Of a stretch of DNA of 64,000 bases, positions 38,962-62,658 are shown piece after piece (position 1 is the first letter of the stretch; each line of letters starts with the position of its first letter). The stretch is taken from assembly GCA_963838985.1 (NCBI GenBank), contig CAWITF010000004.1, positions 76,280-140,279 on the forward strand, in the 5' to 3' direction. Under the pieces are notes generated by a model. The model had not been told where the DNA came from and made no database searches. It saw only the letters and a list, made by a program, of their open reading frames with translations. A program made the translations under genes and the position numbers. Source of the stretch: an uncultured Actinomycetes bacterium (GTDB lineage: Bacteria; Actinomycetota; Thermoleophilia; Gaiellales; Gaiellaceae).

Positions 38962-39154
38962 GGCGCGTCTGCGCGCCAGGCACCTCCGCGTGCCGGCCCC
39001 GCTTGTCGCCTCGTAAAGGCTCTTTGACGAGCCGCGATCGCGTCGGCGGCGGCCAGACCCCGCTGCTGGCCGCAGCGCACCGCCAGGTGCGCGTCGACCG
39101 ACACGCGCCGCCCTCCCGCGGCGAGCAAAGCGAAGCGGTCGCCCAGCGCTAAAT

Positions 39155-39189
39155 AAAGAGGCCCCGGCTGCGGCTCCGGGGGCCTCTTT
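39155..39189. terminator. Strong bidirectional-looking terminator, AAAGAGGCCCCGG ... CCGGGGGCCTCTTT
   Basis: GC-rich stem flanked by an A-run upstream and a T-run downstream, read directly from the sequence. Confidence 0.7.
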
Positions 39190-39498
39190 CAGAGGGCGCT
39201 ACCGTTCCGTGGCGGCTTCGGAAGCCGGGTCTGCGGCGTCCAGCCGCGCCTCCTGCCCTGCCGCCGGAAGTCTGGCGCGCCCCCTGCAAACCTTCGCCTG
39301 GCGTCCGGCCTGGGCTGCAAGGTGGCCTGACTATAGGCGCGATGTCCTGTAGCAGTCAAGTGGCTCGGTCAAGTGATTCTGCAGCGCGCTACTTCACTGA
39401 AATCCCATGGGTATCCCTGAAAACATGCCCCTTTAGGGGGAGGCTCGAAGAGCCACCTTGCGTTTGGTGAAGCATGCGGTTTCACTTCTAAGCCGCAG

Positions 39499-40861
39499 AT
39501 GACGACCCAAGACACCGCCTTCAACGCCAGCCGCACCGCCGCCCCGAGCGGGCTGCGTCTCGGCGAGCGGCTGCGCCAGCTCCGTGTCGGCCGCCGGGCT
39601 CACGCAGAGCGACCTCGCGGGCGAGCGCTTCTCGAAGGAGTACGTCTCCCAGATCGAGCGCGGCAAGACGCGGCCGACGCGCGAGACGATCGAGTGGCTC
39701 GCGGCGCGGCTCGGCGTCGACGCCGGCTTCCTCGCGAACGGCGTCGCGACCGACGAGCGCGGCCGCCTCGAGGGCGCGCTCGCGCGGGCCGAGGCGCTGA
39801 TCGAGGCCGCGCGACGACGCCGACGCGGCGAACGAGTTCGAGCCGCTCGTCCCGCGGCGCGCGCGACGGGCGTGCCCGAGCTCGAGGTGCGCGCGCTCGT
39901 CGGCGCCGGCCGCACGAAGATGCGCCTCGGCGAGCTCCGCGCAGGCGCTCGAGCTCCTGAACGAGGCGCGGGCGCTCGTCGAGGCGGGATCCTTCTCCGA
40001 TCGTCGAGCGCGCCGAGGTCTTCTCCGCGCTCGGCGGCTGCCGCTACCAGCTGAACAGCGCGCAGTCCGCGATCGCCCTGCTTCGAACGAGGCGCTCGCG
40101 CTCGCCGAGCGCTCCGGCCTGCCGTGCGACGCGCTCAAGGCCGAACATCTTCTCGTGGCGCTCGCGCTGCTGGCGCCGCCAGCGCGACTACGAGGCCGCG
40201 CGCGACGACATCGAGCGCGCGCTCGAGCTCGCGCGAGGACGCGAACGACCCCCGCACGATCGGCGCCGCGTACTTCCAGGCGTCGCTCGTCGCCGACCGC
40301 GAAGGGCACTGGGTGCTCGCGCGCAGCGTACGCCGAGAGCGCGCGCGACGGCGTACGAGGAGCTCGCCGACCGCGTGCACGTCGGCGAGCTGACGAACAA
40401 CCTCGGCGGCCTCAACTTCCTGCTCGGCAAGACGGACGAGGCGATCGCGCCTGCTCAAGGAGGCGTTCGCGCATCGCGCTCGAGACGGGCCGCGACGCCG
40501 ACGCCGCGCAGGCGGTCTCGTCGCTCGCCCAGATCCACCTCCGCACCGGCGACTCGATGCAGGCCGAGGAGCAGGCGCGGCACGCGCTCCGGCTGCTCGA
40601 CGGCCGCGTCAGACTACGTCGACGAGATCGGGAACGCACAGCTCGTGCTCGGCCGCGCGTTGCTCGAGCAGGATCGCCTCGACGAGGCCGAGGCGGCGTT
40701 CGCCGACGCCGAGGTGAGCTTCGGCCAGCTCGGCTCCGGCCAGCCACCGCGCCGCAGCCTGGGTCGCCCGAGGCGATCTCGCCGCGCGGCGCGGCGACGA
40801 CAGGCTTGCAGCACACCTCTACCGCACTGCGGCTGAGGCGCTCCAGGACGTCAGGTTCTAG
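39499..40861 (+). pseudogene. XRE-family HTH plus TPR-repeat regulator (paralog of 59112..60431), broken by many frame changes (at least 8) as given
   Basis: The HTH is split over ORF 39499 (LGERLRQLRV) and ORF 39584 (AAGLTQSDLAGERFSKEYVSQIERGKTRPTRETIEWLAARLGVDAGFL). TPR-like segments appear in ORFs 40124, 40155 and 40375 (ALETGRDADAAQAVSSLAQIHLRTGDSMQAEEQARHALRLLDG; DYVDEIGNAQLVLGRALLEQDRLDEAEAAFADAEVSFGQLG). By my own reading it ends ALQDVRF at TAG 40859..40861. Confidence 0.7.
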
Positions 40862-40882
40862 CGGTCGGAAAGGAGGCTCGAC

Positions 40883-41002
40883 GTGACCAAGGCACGGCTC
40901 TACTCCCTGATCATCTCCGCGCTGCCTCTCGCGCTCTGTTTCGCGAAGTTCGCCCCGGCGCTGCTCCATCCGGGCGGCATGAACGACGGCGGCTACTGGT
41001 AG
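40883..41002 (+). CDS. 39-codon hydrophobic peptide ORF immediately downstream of the XRE-TPR regulator
   Basis: Own translation: VTKARLYSLIISALPLALCFAKFAPALLHPGGMNDGGYW. GTG at 40883, preceded by GGAAAGGAGG at the right distance, and 21 nt after the regulator stop. Below the ORF-track size cutoff. Confidence 0.5.
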   Translation: MTKARLYSLIISALPLALCFAKFAPALLHPGGMNDGGYW

Positions 41003-56783: not shown

Positions 56784-57451
56784 AGCTTCGCGGCGGCTGC
56801 GGCATCGAGCACCGCAGTCGTCTGCCCATCGGTGGCGCGTACGAGGCTGCCCGGGATCGTGCGCGTCGGGTCGCCCGCGAATGCAGCGAGCGCCGCCTCC
56901 GCCTTGTTCGCGCCGGTGACGAGGAACAGCACCTCTCGGGCGCGTCGCAGCATCGGCAGCGTCAGCGTGATCCGGTCGACGTACGGCTCGAGGTGCGCCT
57001 CCGCGCCGACGACGCGCCGCTCGGTCTCGTCGAGCGTCGGCTGCTCCGGGTAGAGCGATGCGACGTGCCCGTCGGGCCCGAGCCCGAGCAGCACGAGGTC
57101 GAAGCGCTCGAGCGAGCCGAGCTCCTGGTCGTAGAGCGTCGCGCCTTCCTCGCGCCCGAGCTCGCCTCGCATCCGGTGCACCTTGCCCGCCTTGACGCGG
57201 TCGAGGAGCGCCGCCTTCGCCATGCCGTAGTTCGATCGCTCGTCGTCCTGCGGCACACAGCGCTCGTCCCCCCACCAGAGCTCGACGGCGGTCCAGTCGT
57301 TCTCGAGCGCCGCCGCTTGCTCGTACGCGATCCGCGGCGAGTCGCCGCCGGTGAGCACGACGTGACCGCCCGCGCGTGCGGCAGCGGCGAGCCGCTCCGC
57401 GACGTTCGCCGCGGGGTCGTCCACGACGACGATGTCGATGTCCCTAGCCAT
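56780..57451 (-). CDS. pgl: 6-phosphogluconolactonase
   Basis: ORF 56780..57451: VLTGGDSPRIAYE, WWGDERCVP, LLGLGPDGHVASL. Confidence 0.85.
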   Translation of the reverse strand: MARDIDIVVVDDPAANVAERLAAAARAGGHVVLTGGDSPRIAYEQAAALENDWTAVELWWGDERCVPQDDERSNYGMAKAALLDRVKAGKVHRMRGELGREEGATLYDQELGSLERFDLVLLGLGPDGHVASLYPEQPTLDETERRVVGAEAHLEPYVDRITLTLPMLRRAREVLFLVTGANKAEAALAAFAGDPTRTIPGSLVRATDGQTTAVLDAAAAAKL

Positions 57452-58245
57452 CTTCCGCGAGCTCTCGTGCCCGCGTCATCGCGGCCTGAATCGCGTTCAG
57501 GAACGCTGCTCGCACCCCGGCCTGCTCGAGCTCGCGAATTGCAGCGATCGTCGTGCCGCCCGGCGAGGTGACGGACTCGCGCAGCTCGACCGGATGCATC
57601 TTCTCGTCGCGCAGCAACGTCGCCGTGCCGAGCATCGTCTGAACGACGAGCGTCGTCGAGATCTCCCGCGAGAGACCGAGCAGGATCCCGGCCTCGATCA
57701 TCGCCTCGGCGAGGAGCGCGAAGTACGCCGGGCCCGGAGCCCGAGACCGCAGTGACCGCGTCCATCGCCGACTCCGGCACCCGCACGACGCGGCCGAGGT
57801 GCGAGAGCACCTCCTCGGCGAGCGCCAGCTGCTCGTCGTCCGCGTGCGAGCCGGCGGCGATGCCTGCCATCCCCTCGTGCACCGTCGACGGCGCGTTCGG
57901 CATCGCGCGCACGACCGGGACGCCCTTTGCGATCCGTTCCTCGATGCGAGCCGTCGTGATCGCCGCGGCGACCGAGAGCACGGTCTGACCGGTCGAGAGG
58001 ATCGAGCCGATCTCCGCGAGCAGCGCGTCGATGTCCTGCGGCTTCACGGCGATGACGACGACTGCGGCGCCCTCGATCGCGTCGGCGTTCACCGTCGTCG
58101 CCTCGACGCCGTACCGCTCGTGCAGCTCAGCCACACGGTCCTCGCTGCGCGCGGTGACGACGAGCTCGCTCCAGCCGGAGCTGAGGAGCCCCGAGAGGAG
58201 GGCTTCGCCGATGCGGCCCCCGCCGATGATCGCGATGCGCTGCAT
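57444..58245 (-). pseudogene. proC: Pyrroline-5-carboxylate reductase; frame break near 57729
   Basis: ORF 56962..58245 (MQRIAIIGGGRIGEAL...VVRAMPNAPSTVHEGMAG...AVSGSGP) continues in ORF 57444..57701 (MIEAGILLGLSREISTTLVVQTMLGTATLL...VTSPGGTTIAAI). Confidence 0.85.
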
Positions 58246-58254
58246 GCGCAGAGG

Positions 58255-59115
58255 TTACGCGGCGCGCGGCGTCGCGACCGGCAAAAGGCCGCGTGCGTAC
58301 CCCGCGAGCATGTACATGCTCGCGAGCCCTGCCCACTCGCCGTACGGCTCGAGCAGCTCTGCCGTCTCCCAGCCTTCGACGGGACGGCCGCGCATCGCGC
58401 GAAGCAGCTTGACGAGCCCGAGGTCGCCGACGAGCCCGAAGTCGTAGCGCCCGAGCCCTTCGAGGCACACGACGCCGACCGACCACGGCCCGAGCCCGCG
58501 CTCGCGATCGAGGCGCGCGACGACCGCGTCGGTCGGCACGTCGTGAAGCCGCTCGAGCTCGATCGTCCTGCACATGCGGACGAGCGACGCCGCACGCCGG
58601 GTGTGCAAGCCGAGCGCGCGAAGCTGCGACGGGGCGAGTGCGGCGAGGTCGCGCGTTGTCGGCGAGACGTGCAGGCGCTCGCCGCCCGGCGTGCAGGTCG
58701 TGCGGATGATCTTCTGCTCCAGGCGCCGCGCGCGCTTCGCCTCGATCAACTGGCCGCAGTACGCGCGGAGCAGCGCCTGCGCGACCGTCGGCAGCCGGAT
58801 CGGCCGCAGGCCGCGGAGCGCGCGCGACGCCGGGCCGAGCATCGGGTCTTTGCGCACCCGCCGCAGGAAGTCGGAGTGGTCGTCGTCGAGCGCGAGGATC
58901 CAGCGCAGCTTCGCCGCGCCGGCCTCCGACTCGGTGCGCAGCTCGACCGTGCCGTCCGGCGCTTGCCACGCCCGTGCGAGCTCGACCTCGTCGCCGATCG
59001 CGAGCACGCACGTGAAGAGCCCGTCGCGAAACGTCCGCGTCGCGTCGCTCGAGAGCCGGGCGGAGAAGGCGAGCGAGAAGGGACCGCGAGGCTTGACCGC
59101 GAGCGCGAAGCTCAA
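58255..59115 (-). CDS. HhH-GPD DNA glycosylase (AlkA-like 3-methyladenine glycosylase II)
   Basis: ORF 58255..59256 with TTG 59115 proposed as the start, overlapping the upstream stop as TTGA. Contains GLGPWSVGVVCLEGLGRYDFGLVGDLGL. Confidence 0.7.
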   Translation of the reverse strand: MSFALAVKPRGPFSLAFSARLSSDATRTFRDGLFTCVLAIGDEVELARAWQAPDGTVELRTESEAGAAKLRWILALDDDHSDFLRRVRKDPMLGPASRALRGLRPIRLPTVAQALLRAYCGQLIEAKRARRLEQKIIRTTCTPGGERLHVSPTTRDLAALAPSQLRALGLHTRRAASLVRMCRTIELERLHDVPTDAVVARLDRERGLGPWSVGVVCLEGLGRYDFGLVGDLGLVKLLRAMRGRPVEGWETAELLEPYGEWAGLASMYMLAGYARGLLPVATPRAA

Positions 59116-60431
59116 CGGTCGGCGCGCGCGGTCTCGGGGACTGCCCGCATCCCGAGATCGGCGGCGCGGTCGAGCACGTCGAGTGCCTCGGACTCGCGAC
59201 CCGCGTCGCGGAGGAGCTTCGCCCATGCGCGCGCGGCCGTCGTCGCCTGGCGCCACCGCGCCAGCTCTTCGAGAATGCCCACCGCCTCAGCGTAGGCGCC
59301 GAGGGCGACGTCGACGTCTCCCTTGAGCGCATTGCCTTCGGCGAGGGCCACGAGCGCGAGCCCGCGGTCGTACGGCGAGTCGTCGGTCAGCTCGAGCGCT
59401 GAGCGGGCGAGCTCGACGGCGCGATCACCCCGGCCGAGGAGCGCCGCGACGCGTGCACGCTGCATCGTGATGTCGAACCGCTCCTGTTTCGGCACGGCGG
59501 GACCGAGCAGCCGTTCCGCCTTCTGCAGGTGCGCCTCGGCTGCATCCGGCTCTTCGCGCGAGACAGTGATGTACGCGGCGAGGATGTGCGCGCGTGCGAG
59601 GTGGAAGGTGTCGTCGGTCGCCTGCAGCAGTGCGATCGCCTTGCGCACGTTCGTGAGCGCAACCGCTTCGCGTCCTTCTGTGTGGGCGAGTCGCGCCATC
59701 GACCAGTAGAGGCGGACGCGCATGTACGGGTCTGCGCTCTCCTCCATCCGGTCGAGCAGGCGCTGCACGACCTCTTCGGCTCGCGCGATCTCGCCCATGT
59801 CGCTGAGCGCGTAGCTCAACATCGTTCCGTAGCGCGCTTCGAGCGTCGCGTCGTCATCGAGCTCGTCCAGGCAGCGCTCGAGGAGCGCGACCGCTTCGTG
59901 CGTGCGACCCGCCGAGGAGTACGCGTGCGCGAGCTCGCCGTAGATGTCTGCGAGCGCGACCGGGTCGAATGTCTCACCGTCGAGCGCGCGCTCGAACTGC
60001 TTGACCGCCTCCGAGTAGGCGCCCCGCTCCTGCTCGATCGCCGCGAGCGCGACCCGTGCGCGCCGCGCCGAGACGCGGTCGCCGGCCGTGTCGGCATCGA
60101 CGACGAGCTCGCGCAACGCAGCTTCGGCATCGCCCGCGTCGCCGCCCAGGCGGATCGACAGCTCGAGGTCGGCGAGCCGGAGCTCCCGTGCCGAGTCTGG
60201 ATCGATCGAGGAGCCGGTCTCGAGGTAGTCGGTCGTGACGCCGAGCTTCGCCGCGAGGCGGCGCAGCGCTTTCACCGACGGCTGCCGCGTCCCTGCCTCG
60301 ATGCGGGAGATGTAGGCGTACGAGACTCCGGGAGCAGCAAGCTCACGCTGAGAGAACCCTCTCTCCAGCCGCAGGCGCTTGAGCCGCTCCCCGATCGTCT
60401 CGCCCGCGGCTGGCGATGCTTCGGGTTGCAC
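59112..60431 (-). CDS. XRE-family HTH plus TPR-repeat regulator; intact
   Basis: ORF 59112..60557 with GTG 60431 proposed as the start: IGERLKRLRLERGFSQRELAAPGVSYAYISRIEAGTRQPSVKALRRLAAKLGV (HTH_3-like), followed by about 370 aa of helical repeats rich in A/L/E/R, with TPR-like spacing. Confidence 0.75.
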   Translation of the reverse strand: MQPEASPAAGETIGERLKRLRLERGFSQRELAAPGVSYAYISRIEAGTRQPSVKALRRLAAKLGVTTDYLETGSSIDPDSARELRLADLELSIRLGGDAGDAEAALRELVVDADTAGDRVSARRARVALAAIEQERGAYSEAVKQFERALDGETFDPVALADIYGELAHAYSSAGRTHEAVALLERCLDELDDDATLEARYGTMLSYALSDMGEIARAEEVVQRLLDRMEESADPYMRVRLYWSMARLAHTEGREAVALTNVRKAIALLQATDDTFHLARAHILAAYITVSREEPDAAEAHLQKAERLLGPAVPKQERFDITMQRARVAALLGRGDRAVELARSALELTDDSPYDRGLALVALAEGNALKGDVDVALGAYAEAVGILEELARWRQATTAARAWAKLLRDAGRESEALDVLDRAADLGMRAVPETARADR

Positions 60432-60517
60432 GCCTCCTATTGTGATCGGTTGCCTCGGGGCCGTCAACCGCTTCCGCTTGACAACGGACAGCGCGCTTGT
60501 TCCATTGCGGAGTGCAC

Positions 60518-60539
60518 GAGTCCCTCGACCGAGGGACTC
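60518..60539 (+). promoter_or_regulatory. 9-bp perfect hairpin (GAGTCCCTC GACC GAGGGACTC) in the leader of the small peptide ORF
   Basis: Read directly from the sequence. It ends about 6 nt before the AAGGGAGGGG Shine-Dalgarno. Confidence 0.5.
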
Positions 60540-60556
60540 CCGACAAGGGAGGGGCA

Positions 60557-60652
60557 ATGCTCCGCACCACGTACGTCCGCGTCGTCCTGATCATCGCCGT
60601 CCTCGCAGCCCTCGGGCTCATGCTCGGCGGCGAGCCCTGGGGCCCGCGGTAG
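60557..60652 (+). CDS. 31-codon hydrophobic peptide ORF, divergent from the XRE-TPR regulator
   Basis: Own translation: MLRTTYVRVVLIIAVLAALGLMLGGEPWGPR. Strong SD (AAGGGAGGGG) 4 nt upstream, and its own terminator 13 nt downstream. Below the ORF-track cutoff. Confidence 0.55.
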   Translation: MLRTTYVRVVLIIAVLAALGLMLGGEPWGPR

Positions 60653-60664
60653 CGAAAAGGCTCG

Positions 60665-60692
60665 GCGGGCGGGGACGCACGTCCCCGCCCGC
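60665..60692 (+). terminator. 13-bp perfect GC hairpin (GCGGGCGGGGACG CA CGTCCCCGCCCGC) after the peptide ORF
   Basis: Read directly from the sequence. Confidence 0.7.
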
Positions 60693-60706
60693 TGTACCCT
60701 CGGCGC

Positions 60707-62183
60707 GTGCCGATCGTTGAGCTCGCTCTCTATGCGCTGCTCCTGGTCGCGGCCGGCACGCTGATCTGGCGCCGCCCGCTCGCCGCCCTCTACGTCTTCG
60801 TCTCCGGGCTCGCGGTGCACAACGCCGTGATGGCGGCGCTCTATGCGGCCGGGGTCCGGGGCTCGACGTTGACGGCGATCACTGCGTGGAAGGAGATCCT
60901 GCTCACCGTCGCGCTCGTCCGTGTCGGCACCGACGCCGCACGCGCGAGGCGGCTTCCGTTCGATCCCGGTGTCGCGGACGTCCTTGCGCTCGCCTTCGCC
61001 GCGCTGACAGTTCTGTACGCGCTGATTCCGCAGTCGGCGCTCGACGGCGCCGCCGGTCACAAGGCAGTCGCGCTCGCACTGCGCCACGACGTCGTGCCCG
61101 TCGGGGCGTACTTCCTCGGCCGTTCGCTCCTCGTCACGCGTGTAGACCTGCGCCGGCTGGCCGTGACGCTGCTCGGCGTCGCGGCGGTCGTCGCCGGAGT
61201 CGGCCTCGTCGACGTCTACGCCGTTTCGATCTCGTGGTGGCGGACGAACGGCGTCATCGACTACTTCCACCGCCACCTCGGCTACGACTACCACGGCACC
61301 GGCGTGCGCACCGAGGCGCACGGCGCGGTCTATGGGCTGCCGGAGAACTTCATCTACAACGTCGGCGGCAACAAGCCGTTCCTGCGCCGGCTCGTGTCGA
61401 CGTTCCTCAGCCCGCTTGCGAGCGGGTATCTCTTCGTCGTCGCGCTGCTCATCGCGACGACGACGCTGCGCCGCCGGCCGGTTGCTCGCCGCCGGCGCGG
61501 TCGCCAGCGCTGGTCTCCTCTGGACGTTCTCGCGGTCGTCGCTCGTCGCGCTTGCCGCCGGGCTCGTCGTGCTCGCGTTCACGCGCCGCGTGCCGAAGGC
61601 TCTTGCTGCCGCCGCGGCTGTGGTCGTGCTCGCGGTCGCCTGGGCGCATCTCTTCCCGAAGCTCGCGCCGACCGGGACCTTCACGAAGGTCGATGTCACG
61701 TACCAGCAGTCGCTCGCGAAGGGGCACAGCGGTGTGAGCTATTCGGCGGTGAACGCGAGCGAGCCGTCGCTGCACTCGCACTGGGCGAGCCTGAAGGACG
61801 GCGCGCGCACGATGGTCGATCATCCGCAGGGCTACGGCCTCGGCAATGTCGGGCAGACGGCGTCGCGCACCGGGACGCCGTTGAAGGCGGGCGAGTCGAA
61901 CTACACGGAGCTCGGCGTCGAGCTCGGCGTGCTCGGCGCGCTCCTCTGGATCGCATGGAACCTCGCGGTGCTCGTCGGCCTCGTGCGCGCTGGTCGCGCA
62001 GATGCGTGGGCGGCCAGCGTCGCGGCTGCGTTCGCCGCGGTGCTCGCGCTCGCGGTGCAGACGGACGTGATCGGCGACCCATGGGTCGCGTATTGCGTGT
62101 GGGGTCTCGGCGGGGCATTGCTCCTGCGCACGCGTCCGCAAGAGCGTCTTGCGCGCGCGGATTCGCCGGCCGTAGCCTCGTAA
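60707..62183 (+). pseudogene. O-antigen ligase/polymerase-like (Wzy_C) polytopic membrane protein; frame break near 61475
   Basis: ORF 60707..62191 is credible to ...YLFVVALLIATTTL. It then continues in ORF 61332..62183 (...LLWTFSRSSLVALAAGLVVLAF...HSHWASLKDGARTMVDHPQGYGLGN...ESNYTELGVELGVLG). Confidence 0.7.
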
Positions 62184-62187
62184 CACC

Positions 62188-62658
62188 GTGACGACATACC
62201 GCGTCCTGCTCACGGCGGCGTTCGCGCTCGCCGTCGTTGCGCTCGCCTTCCACGTCGAGCAGCGTGCAGCCAAGCCGGCCGTCGTCGCAGACCCGGTGCG
62301 TACTCCCGGCGTGCTCAACCCGAACGTCACGCAGTCGAACATCGGCTCGACGATCTGCGTGACGGGCTGGACGCGCACCGTGCGTCCACCCACCGACTAC
62401 ACGAACGCGCTGAAGGTGAAGCAGCTGCGTGCGTACGGGCTGCGCGGGCCGCCGTCCGCGTATCAGGAGGATCACCTGATCAGCCTCGAGCTCGGCGGCG
62501 ATCCCACCGACCCGCGCAACTTGTGGCCCGAGCCGTATCCGCGTGCGGCCCAGGTCGACGTGATCGAGAACGAGCTGAACGCACAGGTGTGCAGCGGCGC
62601 GCTGACGCTCGTGGAAGCGCAGGAGCGCGAGTCCGCGCTCAAGCACAGCCGGGGATGA
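62188..62658 (+). CDS. Small secreted or membrane-anchored HNH/His-Me-finger-like nuclease-family protein
   Basis: ORF 62188..62658. N-terminal TM/signal segment, then TICVTGWTRTVRPP...YQEDHLISLELGGDPTDPRNLWPEP. Confidence 0.55.
   Translation: MTTYRVLLTAAFALAVVALAFHVEQRAAKPAVVADPVRTPGVLNPNVTQSNIGSTICVTGWTRTVRPPTDYTNALKVKQLRAYGLRGPPSAYQEDHLISLELGGDPTDPRNLWPEPYPRAAQVDVIENELNAQVCSGALTLVEAQERESALKHSRG

Follow-up and report, generated by a model that had tools for sequence, protein, structure and literature searches.

A conserved short-peptide gene coupled to an XRE-HTH/TPR regulator in Gaiellaceae and related Actinomycetota: a candidate receptor–peptide circuit

The 64,000-nucleotide stretch of DNA analysed in this study (hereafter the window) comes from contig CAWITF010000004.1 (positions 76,280 to 140,279, assembly GCA_963838985.1) of an uncultured bacterium of the Gaiellaceae (Actinomycetota, Thermoleophilia). 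It contains the gene of a regulator with an XRE-type helix-turn-helix (HTH) domain and tetratricopeptide repeats (TPR), from which a divergently oriented open reading frame (ORF) of 31 codons is separated by a spacer of exactly 125 nt. We found that the regulator and the peptide gene are genetically coupled across the whole lineage in which they occur and that this coupling survives the change of all other neighbours. The C-terminal tail of the peptide, including its lineage-specific flanks, is the selected product. By analogy with Rgg/SHP, RopB/LCP and PlcR/PapR, whose logic it would share, the module may be a receptor–peptide circuit of the RRNPP type (Rap, Rgg, NprR, PlcR, PrgX); we regard this as the most likely reading and give it about an even chance. 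The two genes are as follows:

59112..60431, minus strand: XRE-HTH/TPR regulator, putative cytoplasmic peptide receptor and transcription factor, GTG start, 439 amino acids (aa)
60557..60652, plus strand: peptide gene, 31 codons and a stop codon, encodes MLRTTYVRVVLIIAVLAALGLMLGGEPWGPR, conserved in more than 130 distinct versions

The peptide, the regulator and their coupling

The complete 31-codon ORF with a basic N-terminus, a hydrophobic core and a Trp-containing tail, which had been reported in a preliminary description of this DNA, was found as described. Residues 1–23 make up the basic N-terminus and the hydrophobic leader, and residues 24–31 (60626..60649) form the conserved tail GGEPWGPR. 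A phmmer search of 1.84 billion representatives with the 31-aa peptide gave 2 hits, the query being too short to inform. Conservation of the ORF in relatives, proposed as a check in the same description, was apparent from 136 different peptides, for which 145 different DNA versions were counted. All 136 contain an unchanged PWGP, the codons of which vary synonymously (first Pro: CCG 70, CCC 70, CCT 5; Gly: GGC 84, GGG 51, GGT 7, GGA 3). Exactly 32 aa were counted in 115 of the 136 peptides, and E or D directly precedes the PWGP core in 114. The residues R3 and K/R9 are conserved, and position −3 before the tail is invariably G or A, whereas positions −2 (2.7 bits) and +4 (3.2 bits) are hypervariable. 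A typical peptide carries two N-terminal K/R residues and an uncharged stretch of 17 residues with a mean Kyte–Doolittle value of 2.5. The conservation of the ORF is beyond chance, and both genes are real. Within the core clade, the otherwise invariant Gly is replaced only in locus L027 (2126..2397; loci are denoted by L numbers), in which both tandem copies read EPWVPY and not EPWGPx.

The arrangement of an XRE-type HTH followed by TPR-like repeats, which had been assigned to the regulator, is borne out by Pfam matches and by a structural model. HTH_3 matched residues 17–70 (E 1e-13), HTH_31 matched as well (E 2e-10), and the repeats were matched by TPR_12 (E 2e-13) and TPR_MalT (E 5e-13). 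The model obtained with AlphaFold2 (AF2) from an input of 25 homologues (mean pLDDT 88.6) is all-helical, with a five-helix HTH, a linker helix and then 17 TPR-like helices over residues 99–430. The modelled fold is that of an HTH plus a TPR superhelix. A Foldseek search with this model agreed with it on the C-terminal domain, the folding of which as a TPR superhelix had been suggested earlier as a test; the matched superhelices included PlcR, RapJ and the Rap protein of pLS20 at E 1e-6 to 1e-5. The sequence of the regulator shows no evident signal peptide or transmembrane segment. More than 2000 homologues of the regulator were found; among the matches listed, 119 (besides the window's own) are 61–90% identical to it, and these 119 are 433–491 aa long, mostly about 441 aa.

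A scan of one genome per species detected relatives of the regulator in 277 species-level genomes. The labels of the 80 loci examined (of the 277 genomes) are Gaiellaceae, Thermoleophilia, Solirubrobacteraceae and unclassified Actinomycetota metagenome-assembled genomes (MAGs), with one Acidobacteriota; in two homologue searches, the sources were MAGs and metagenomes only, with no cultured host. A divergent small ORF preceded by a Shine–Dalgarno (SD) sequence lies 80–165 nt (once 313 nt) upstream of the regulator start in 76 of the 83 loci with enough upstream DNA. Reciprocally, a scan of metagenomes with a degenerate DNA pattern for L-G-x-E-P-W-G-P-x-stop yielded 87 loci, about three quarters of which contain a genuine peptide of the family. 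Wherever the flank suffices, the regulator adjoins each genuine peptide gene except in L141, where the promoter region is kept and the contig diverges after codon nine of the regulator.

The gene located after the peptide gene differs between loci. Its product is a Wzy_C-type protein in the core clade; in more distant orthologous loci, the regulators of which are about 48–52% identical, it is a glyoxalase. In paralogous loci without AlkA, proC and pgl, a CorA-like (L053) or patatin-like (L066) gene or a convergent gene (L075, L078) is found at this place. The constant partner of the peptide is the regulator and not the downstream gene. This variability therefore argues against an attenuator of a fixed gene, which would be expected to have one and the same co-directional gene downstream, and also against a dedicated subunit of the Wzy_C protein.

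Selection on the tail and variants of the peptide

Where the peptide gene is present in tandem copies, the tail (taken as the last 9 residues) and the leader were compared between the copies in 37 within-genome comparisons:

Leader: amino-acid differences 216/813, synonymous differences 132/813
Last 9 residues: amino-acid differences 4/333, synonymous differences 51/333

The copies differ in 27% of the leader residues and in 1% of the tail residues (Fisher p = 2e-15). Purifying selection is far stronger on the tail than on the leader. Synonymous divergence is equal in the two parts, which speaks against gene conversion having recently affected only the tail. When copies of one genome are compared, the hypervariable positions −2 and +4 agree in 97.5% and 92.5% of cases, respectively; the values between genomes are 14.5% and 15.2%. 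In orthologous two-copy loci, the copies have changed in concert (T..G, S..A, T..Y, S..Y, A..Y), and the same flank residue is sometimes encoded by different codons in the two copies (GCG/GCA, TAC/TAT). Identical tail heptamers were shared by 29% of genome pairs at 80–90% regulator identity (71% of the pairs differ) and by 5% at 70–80%. An invariant core with lineage-specific flanks that match within a genome is what a cognate signal–receptor pair predicts, resembling pherotypes.

About 2 kb of DNA is inserted between the regulator-adjacent peptide gene and the Wzy_C gene in L009 (1685..3856) and L154 (3768..6057). The insertion in L009 splits two peptide copies with unlike tails, LEPWGPG and NEPWGPY, which are among the few within-genome mismatches.

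On a neighbour-joining tree of the regulators, the class of the tail follows the regulator clade. The classes include [E/D]PWGPx, E[LMFSA]PWGPx, [ST]PWGP-stop, FPWGP-stop, GPWPP, PIGPW/PIGPF, MDWGP, LPWW, TPHGP and LIVGP, among others. Three genomes have two paralogous regulators each (L049/L066, L053/L054, L026/L061) and two different tails each. The search for small ORFs at paralogous regulators, also recommended in the preliminary description, thus found these pairs with tails of their own.

In L073, L080 and L083, which group in the regulator tree and have the orthologous gene context, only a 6-codon ORF with a strong SD before it and a GC hairpin after it is present. These ORFs encode MYPWGA, MHPWGS and MYPWGS, respectively, with differing codons for Pro (CCG/CCC), Gly (GGC/GGT) and Ser (TCC/AGC). 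Their sister locus L078 encodes the non-hydrophobic peptide M-ETRSGVWPWGS-ETRSGVWPWGS, the two 33-nt repeat units of which show 4 synonymous and 0 non-synonymous differences. The 6-codon ORFs and the L078 repeats therefore indicate that the hydrophobic segment is dispensable and that the PWG motif is the functional unit.

The divergent promoter region and the neighbouring genes

Further features of the locus are:

60439..60467, minus strand: promoter-like site of the regulator, TTGACG, 17-nt spacer, CACAAT; ends 7 nt before the GTG
60478..60483, plus strand: TTGACA, −35 element for transcription of the peptide gene, within the conserved CTTGACAAC, back-to-back with the regulator −35
60518..60539, plus strand: stem-loop in the 5′ leader with a 9-bp stem, GAGTCCCTC-GACC-GAGGGACTC; folds as predicted
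60545..60554, plus strand: SD sequence AAGGGAGGGG, read from the sequence
60663..60694, plus strand: terminator-like GC hairpin closing the peptide unit, 14-bp stem, no U tract, −39.3 kcal/mol, z = −4.9
58255..59115, minus strand: AlkA-like HhH-GPD gene, its start overlapping the regulator stop; the first of the downstream genes, followed by proC and pgl

The TTGACA hexamer, the leader hairpin, the strong SD and the 125-nt gap lie exactly where the preliminary description had placed them. The GC terminator that it had given as 13 bp at 60665..60692 is present as a hairpin and differs in size.

The promoter-like site of the regulator is the only hit of its kind in 60300..60800 (shuffled sequences gave a mean of 0.0). 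The conserved blocks in 46 aligned intergenic regions of relatives are CGTCAAT, an ATTCTGA/ATTGTGA box and CTTGACAAC. CGTCAAT is the complement of the TTGACG −35 element and lies 17 nt from the CACAAT/CAGAAT −10 box. Since the −10 box ends about 7 nt before the regulator start, the regulator mRNA is probably leaderless. On the peptide side, CTTGACA is nearly invariant in the 46 loci. The combined motif CGTCAA-N-CTTGACA occurs once in the window, with 0.02 matches expected by chance. Further targets of the regulator were looked for within the 64 kb, and both the leader palindrome and the CGTCAA..CTTGACA motif were found once only. GTCAA..TTGAC was also considered as a rigid operator and rejected, its spacing ranging from 10 to about 25 nt among relatives; because of this varying distance, the two boxes are read as back-to-back −35 elements of two promoters.

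Part of the family has kept the leader hairpin, with a few compensatory changes, and it recurs before second gene copies; a role in mRNA stability or processing is possible. Most peptide ORFs of the relatives are preceded by a comparably strong SD at the same spacing. The hairpin after the ORF showed compensatory changes in 5 of 12 pairs (28 relatives) and is missing in one core subclade. No Rfam match was obtained in the window or in the intergenic region.

The overlap of the regulator stop with the start of the AlkA-like gene, followed by proC and pgl, had been noted before; we confirmed it, and the order regulator, AlkA-like gene, proC, pgl is kept in nearly all orthologous loci. The matches of the AlkA-like gene are weak (HhH-GPD E 1e-4, AlkA PRK10308 E 3e-9) and below curated cut-offs. 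On the peptide side, long contigs show one to three tandem 32-aa ORFs, then the gene of a Wzy_C-type membrane protein, a 156-aa gene and a glyoxalase gene. In the window, both the Wzy_C-type gene (60707..62191 and 61332..62183, plus strand) and proC (56962..58245 and 57444..57701, minus strand) switch to a second reading frame partway, and the first ORF of each ends up as Arg/Ala-rich nonsense. Pfam detected no Wzy_C domain in the translation of 60707..62191. Both genes are intact in relatives, with a similar break in proC of L002. The frame breaks are probably indel errors of long-read MAG assembly and not signs of pseudogenes.

The hairpin 3′ arm and the spacer behind it contain CCGCTGTACCCTCG (60689..60709, plus strand), which is nearly invariant among relatives and puts a −10-like hexamer TACCCT 6 nt ahead of the GTG of the Wzy_C-type gene. 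Because of this position and of the missing SD, the Wzy_C-type gene may be transcribed as a leaderless mRNA from its own promoter embedded in the peptide terminator. The gene at 62188..62658 (plus strand), which always follows the Wzy_C-type gene in the core clade, encodes a protein of 156 aa that contains a hydrophobic segment at its N-terminus and the motif EDHLISLELGG...NLWPEP; it has no Pfam annotation in relatives.

A second regulator-plus-peptide pair had been claimed at 39499..41002 (plus strand), and this claim did not hold. The XRE-type regulator encoded there shares only the HTH with the regulator at 59112..60431 (38% identity over 53 aa), and a small ORF of the family type was looked for near it and not found. 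The gene appears frameshifted, since it is read in at least two frames (39584..40054, then 40375..40836). Upstream of it, an apparent non-coding transcription unit (39150..39360, minus strand) starts with TTGACT, a 17-nt spacer and TATAGT, continues with about 190 nt of structured, lower-GC sequence (fold z = −2.2, no Rfam match) and ends with a GC hairpin and a U tail (GAGGCCCCGG..CCGGGGCCTCTTTATTT).

A possible signalling circuit and its alternatives

In the proposed circuit, the divergent small gene would give rise to a 31–32-aa pre-peptide, whose basic N-terminus and 17-residue hydrophobic stretch would act as an export or membrane-insertion leader. The C-terminal tail x-[E/D]-P-W-G-P-x would be the functional product, presumably released by export and cleavage, and would bind as the cognate ligand to the TPR domain of the regulator. 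Such binding is supported indirectly by the match of tail class and regulator clade, by the different tails of paralogous pairs in one genome and by the agreement of the tails among copies of one genome. The XRE-HTH domain would then act on the shared 125-bp divergent promoter region as its putative DNA target, resulting in feedback on the peptide gene and on the regulator operon (regulator, AlkA-like gene, proC, pgl). The signal might be shared between cells, as in quorum sensing, or be private to the producer. Sharing is less certain than the receptor–ligand circuit itself, and we propose it only tentatively.

One of the closest parallels is Rgg/SHP of streptococci. In both systems, a cytoplasmic XRE-HTH receptor with a helical-repeat peptide-binding domain (a predicted one in the window) is accompanied by a small divergent gene about 100–150 nt away, and the pre-peptide of about 20–35 aa is basic at the N-terminus and hydrophobic in its body. 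In SHPs (short hydrophobic peptides), the C-terminal 6–9 residues, the first of which is acidic, are the functional part. The tail described here is polar, aromatic and rich in Pro and Gly (EPWGP), whereas that of SHPs is aliphatic. Moreover, the regulator is about 440 aa long with roughly 8.5 TPR pairs, in contrast to about 285 aa in Rgg, and no Rgg/RNPP C-terminal model is among its Pfam hits. The host belongs to Actinomycetota and not to Bacillota, and the locus is core and syntenic.

The variants in L073, L080 and L083 resemble RopB and its leaderless communication peptides (LCPs), in which an ultrashort ORF encoding the mature signal is divergent from an XRE/TPR-like receptor. The leaderless signals of the RopB type are mostly 8–10 aa long and highly hydrophobic, divergent from the receptor, and LCPs have been described in Firmicutes only (PMC10518010). 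The leaderless forms found here are 6 aa long and not hydrophobic, and the window's own peptide differs from LCPs by its 23-residue leader. The HTH plus TPR architecture is also that of PlcR/PapR and NprR/NprX of the Bacillus cereus group, and PlcR–PapR complexes are among the Foldseek matches. NprR is similar to the regulator in overall length. PapR and NprX are encoded downstream of their receptors, co-directionally, and a pro-region separates their mature peptide from the signal peptide; here, in contrast, the gene is divergent and the tail directly follows the hydrophobic segment. The best profile matches of the TPR region were to NsdA, AfsR/SARP and MalT-type regulators (NsdA_fam_reg E 7e-13 and AfsR E 1e-8, both below curated cut-offs, unlike TPR_MalT). 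These regulators come from the same host phylum but have no N-terminal XRE-HTH, and none of them is known to be paired with a dedicated small peptide gene.

Several findings weigh against an RRNPP-type circuit. The module is core, syntenic and vertically inherited within a housekeeping operon, unlike typical accessory RRNPP systems, and its PWGP core is unchanged within the main clade, unlike the fast-diversifying signals of those systems. With E values up to 0.1, the Pfam hits of the regulator included no RRNPP-specific model. Its strongest TPR matches are of generic or actinobacterial types (TPR_12, TPR_MalT, NsdA, AfsR), and Foldseek ranked generic TPR proteins first (designed TPRs, LGN/Pins). 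The family profile of the regulator matched PlcR (2qfc) with E 9e-10. RRNPP homology is not established by this match, because it covers residues 11–203, that is, the HTH and the first repeats only, and HTH-only proteins already reach about E 1e-7 with the same profile. In seven loci the regulator is intact and no peptide gene is adjacent; what remains in one of them, L046, resembles a clean deletion. The peptide might be anchored in the membrane by its 17-residue hydrophobic stretch instead of losing this stretch as a cleaved signal peptide. Finally, a peptide that is only a target of regulation would be just as likely to be encoded next to the regulator and to be inherited with it. The RRNPP-like cassette proposed in the preliminary description therefore stands in part: its architecture, the peptide–regulator coupling and the selection on the tail agree with it, whereas the RRNPP-specific Pfam match and the accessory, diversifying character are missing.

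In the main rival explanation, the peptide would be a target and not a ligand: the adjacent regulator would control the gene of a small peptide of the envelope or of the membrane, crossing it once, and the TPR domain would sense something else. The two N-terminal K/R residues, the 17-residue hydrophobic stretch and the net-acidic tail suggest an N-in/C-out anchor with Trp at the interface. The tightly fixed length of 32 aa, the constant place of the peptide gene before the Wzy_C-type membrane protein gene in the core clade, the invariance of PWGP, as expected of a structural motif, and the persistence of the regulator without the peptide in the seven loci all fit this explanation. We nevertheless consider it rather unlikely. 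The 6-codon ORFs and the two-repeat peptide of L078 keep PWG without any membrane segment, and the peptide stays with the regulator where Wzy_C is absent. Nor would a simple anchor account for the drift of the membrane segments among the copies of one genome, given that the tails of these copies match even at residues that are hypervariable from genome to genome. The same anchor-like topology would also suit a tethered modulator that sequesters or releases the regulator by contact and thereby senses, without a diffusible signal, the state of the envelope or of secretion, for example. A physiological circuit of this kind agrees better with a core, vertically inherited place in a housekeeping operon than an accessory quorum sensor would. 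However, the positive-inside rule puts the conserved tail outside, away from a cytoplasmic TPR protein, and the leaderless 6-aa variants cannot tether anything, which makes this explanation improbable.

Pro-stop, Gly-Pro-stop and PP motifs slow down termination or elongation of translation. The peptide might accordingly act in cis as a leader or arrest peptide, if pausing at PWGP-stop or PWPP controlled the GC hairpin and so the read-through into the next gene. The strong covarying hairpin starting 10 nt past the stop codon and the likeness of the 6-codon ORFs to known mini-leader ORFs speak for this mechanism. It is very improbable in view of the inconstant downstream gene, which is even convergent in L075 and L078, and of the absence of the hairpin in one core subclade. 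Moreover, the distance from W to the stop codon varies (PWGP*, PWGPx*, PWGPLV*, PIGPW*, LPWW*, with the asterisk for the stop), which is unfit for an arrest register, and neither a conserved basic and hydrophobic leader nor one to three tandem copies, each with its own SD, would be expected of an attenuator. Still less probable, and hardly credible in our opinion, is a type I toxin-like hydrophobic peptide. A short hydrophobic ORF and a structured 5′ leader are in line with such a toxin. In contrast, the gene has a fixed, vertically inherited place beside one regulator family in 277 species-level genomes, its invariant part is the polar tail and not the membrane segment, 6-aa variants occur, tandem amplification is tolerated and no antitoxin RNA of Rfam was found in the window and the intergenic region. 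The small membrane protein and the type I toxin-like peptide had both been named in the preliminary description as alternatives. Both are weakened by the 6-codon leaderless variants and by the regulator being the constant partner, and the former is still a rival.

In the literature, RRNPP systems are described in Firmicutes only, and we found no description of such a regulator–peptide module in Actinomycetota. The 80 loci examined lie outside the known range of RRNPP systems, i.e. Bacillota and their mobile elements. Peptide signalling via cytoplasmic TPR receptors is seen as a trait of Bacillota, and Actinomycetota are thought to use small molecules (PMC10075063). As a tentative broader proposal, which we regard as possible and the less certain part of our interpretation, Thermoleophilia (Gaiellales and relatives), which are abundant and uncultured Actinomycetota of soil, may use ribosomally made peptides for cell–cell signalling via a vertically inherited XRE-TPR receptor. 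The signal would have a PWGP core with lineage-specific flanks (pherotypes) and its source would be either a 32-aa precursor with a leader or a leaderless ORF of 6 codons. RRNPP-type quorum sensing would then have arisen or persisted outside Bacillota, wired into genes of core metabolism.

Even if the peptide is not the ligand, it would represent a previously undescribed and very widely conserved family of micro-proteins. The module offers hundreds of natural variants of peptide and receptor and, for bacteria that are difficult to culture, a compact candidate pair of ligand and receptor. Its natural forms with and without a leader could reveal how signals of this kind evolve. If the proposed circuit is true, a second phylum would be added to the range of this signalling logic, with a module conserved throughout a class of uncultured actinobacteria from soil.

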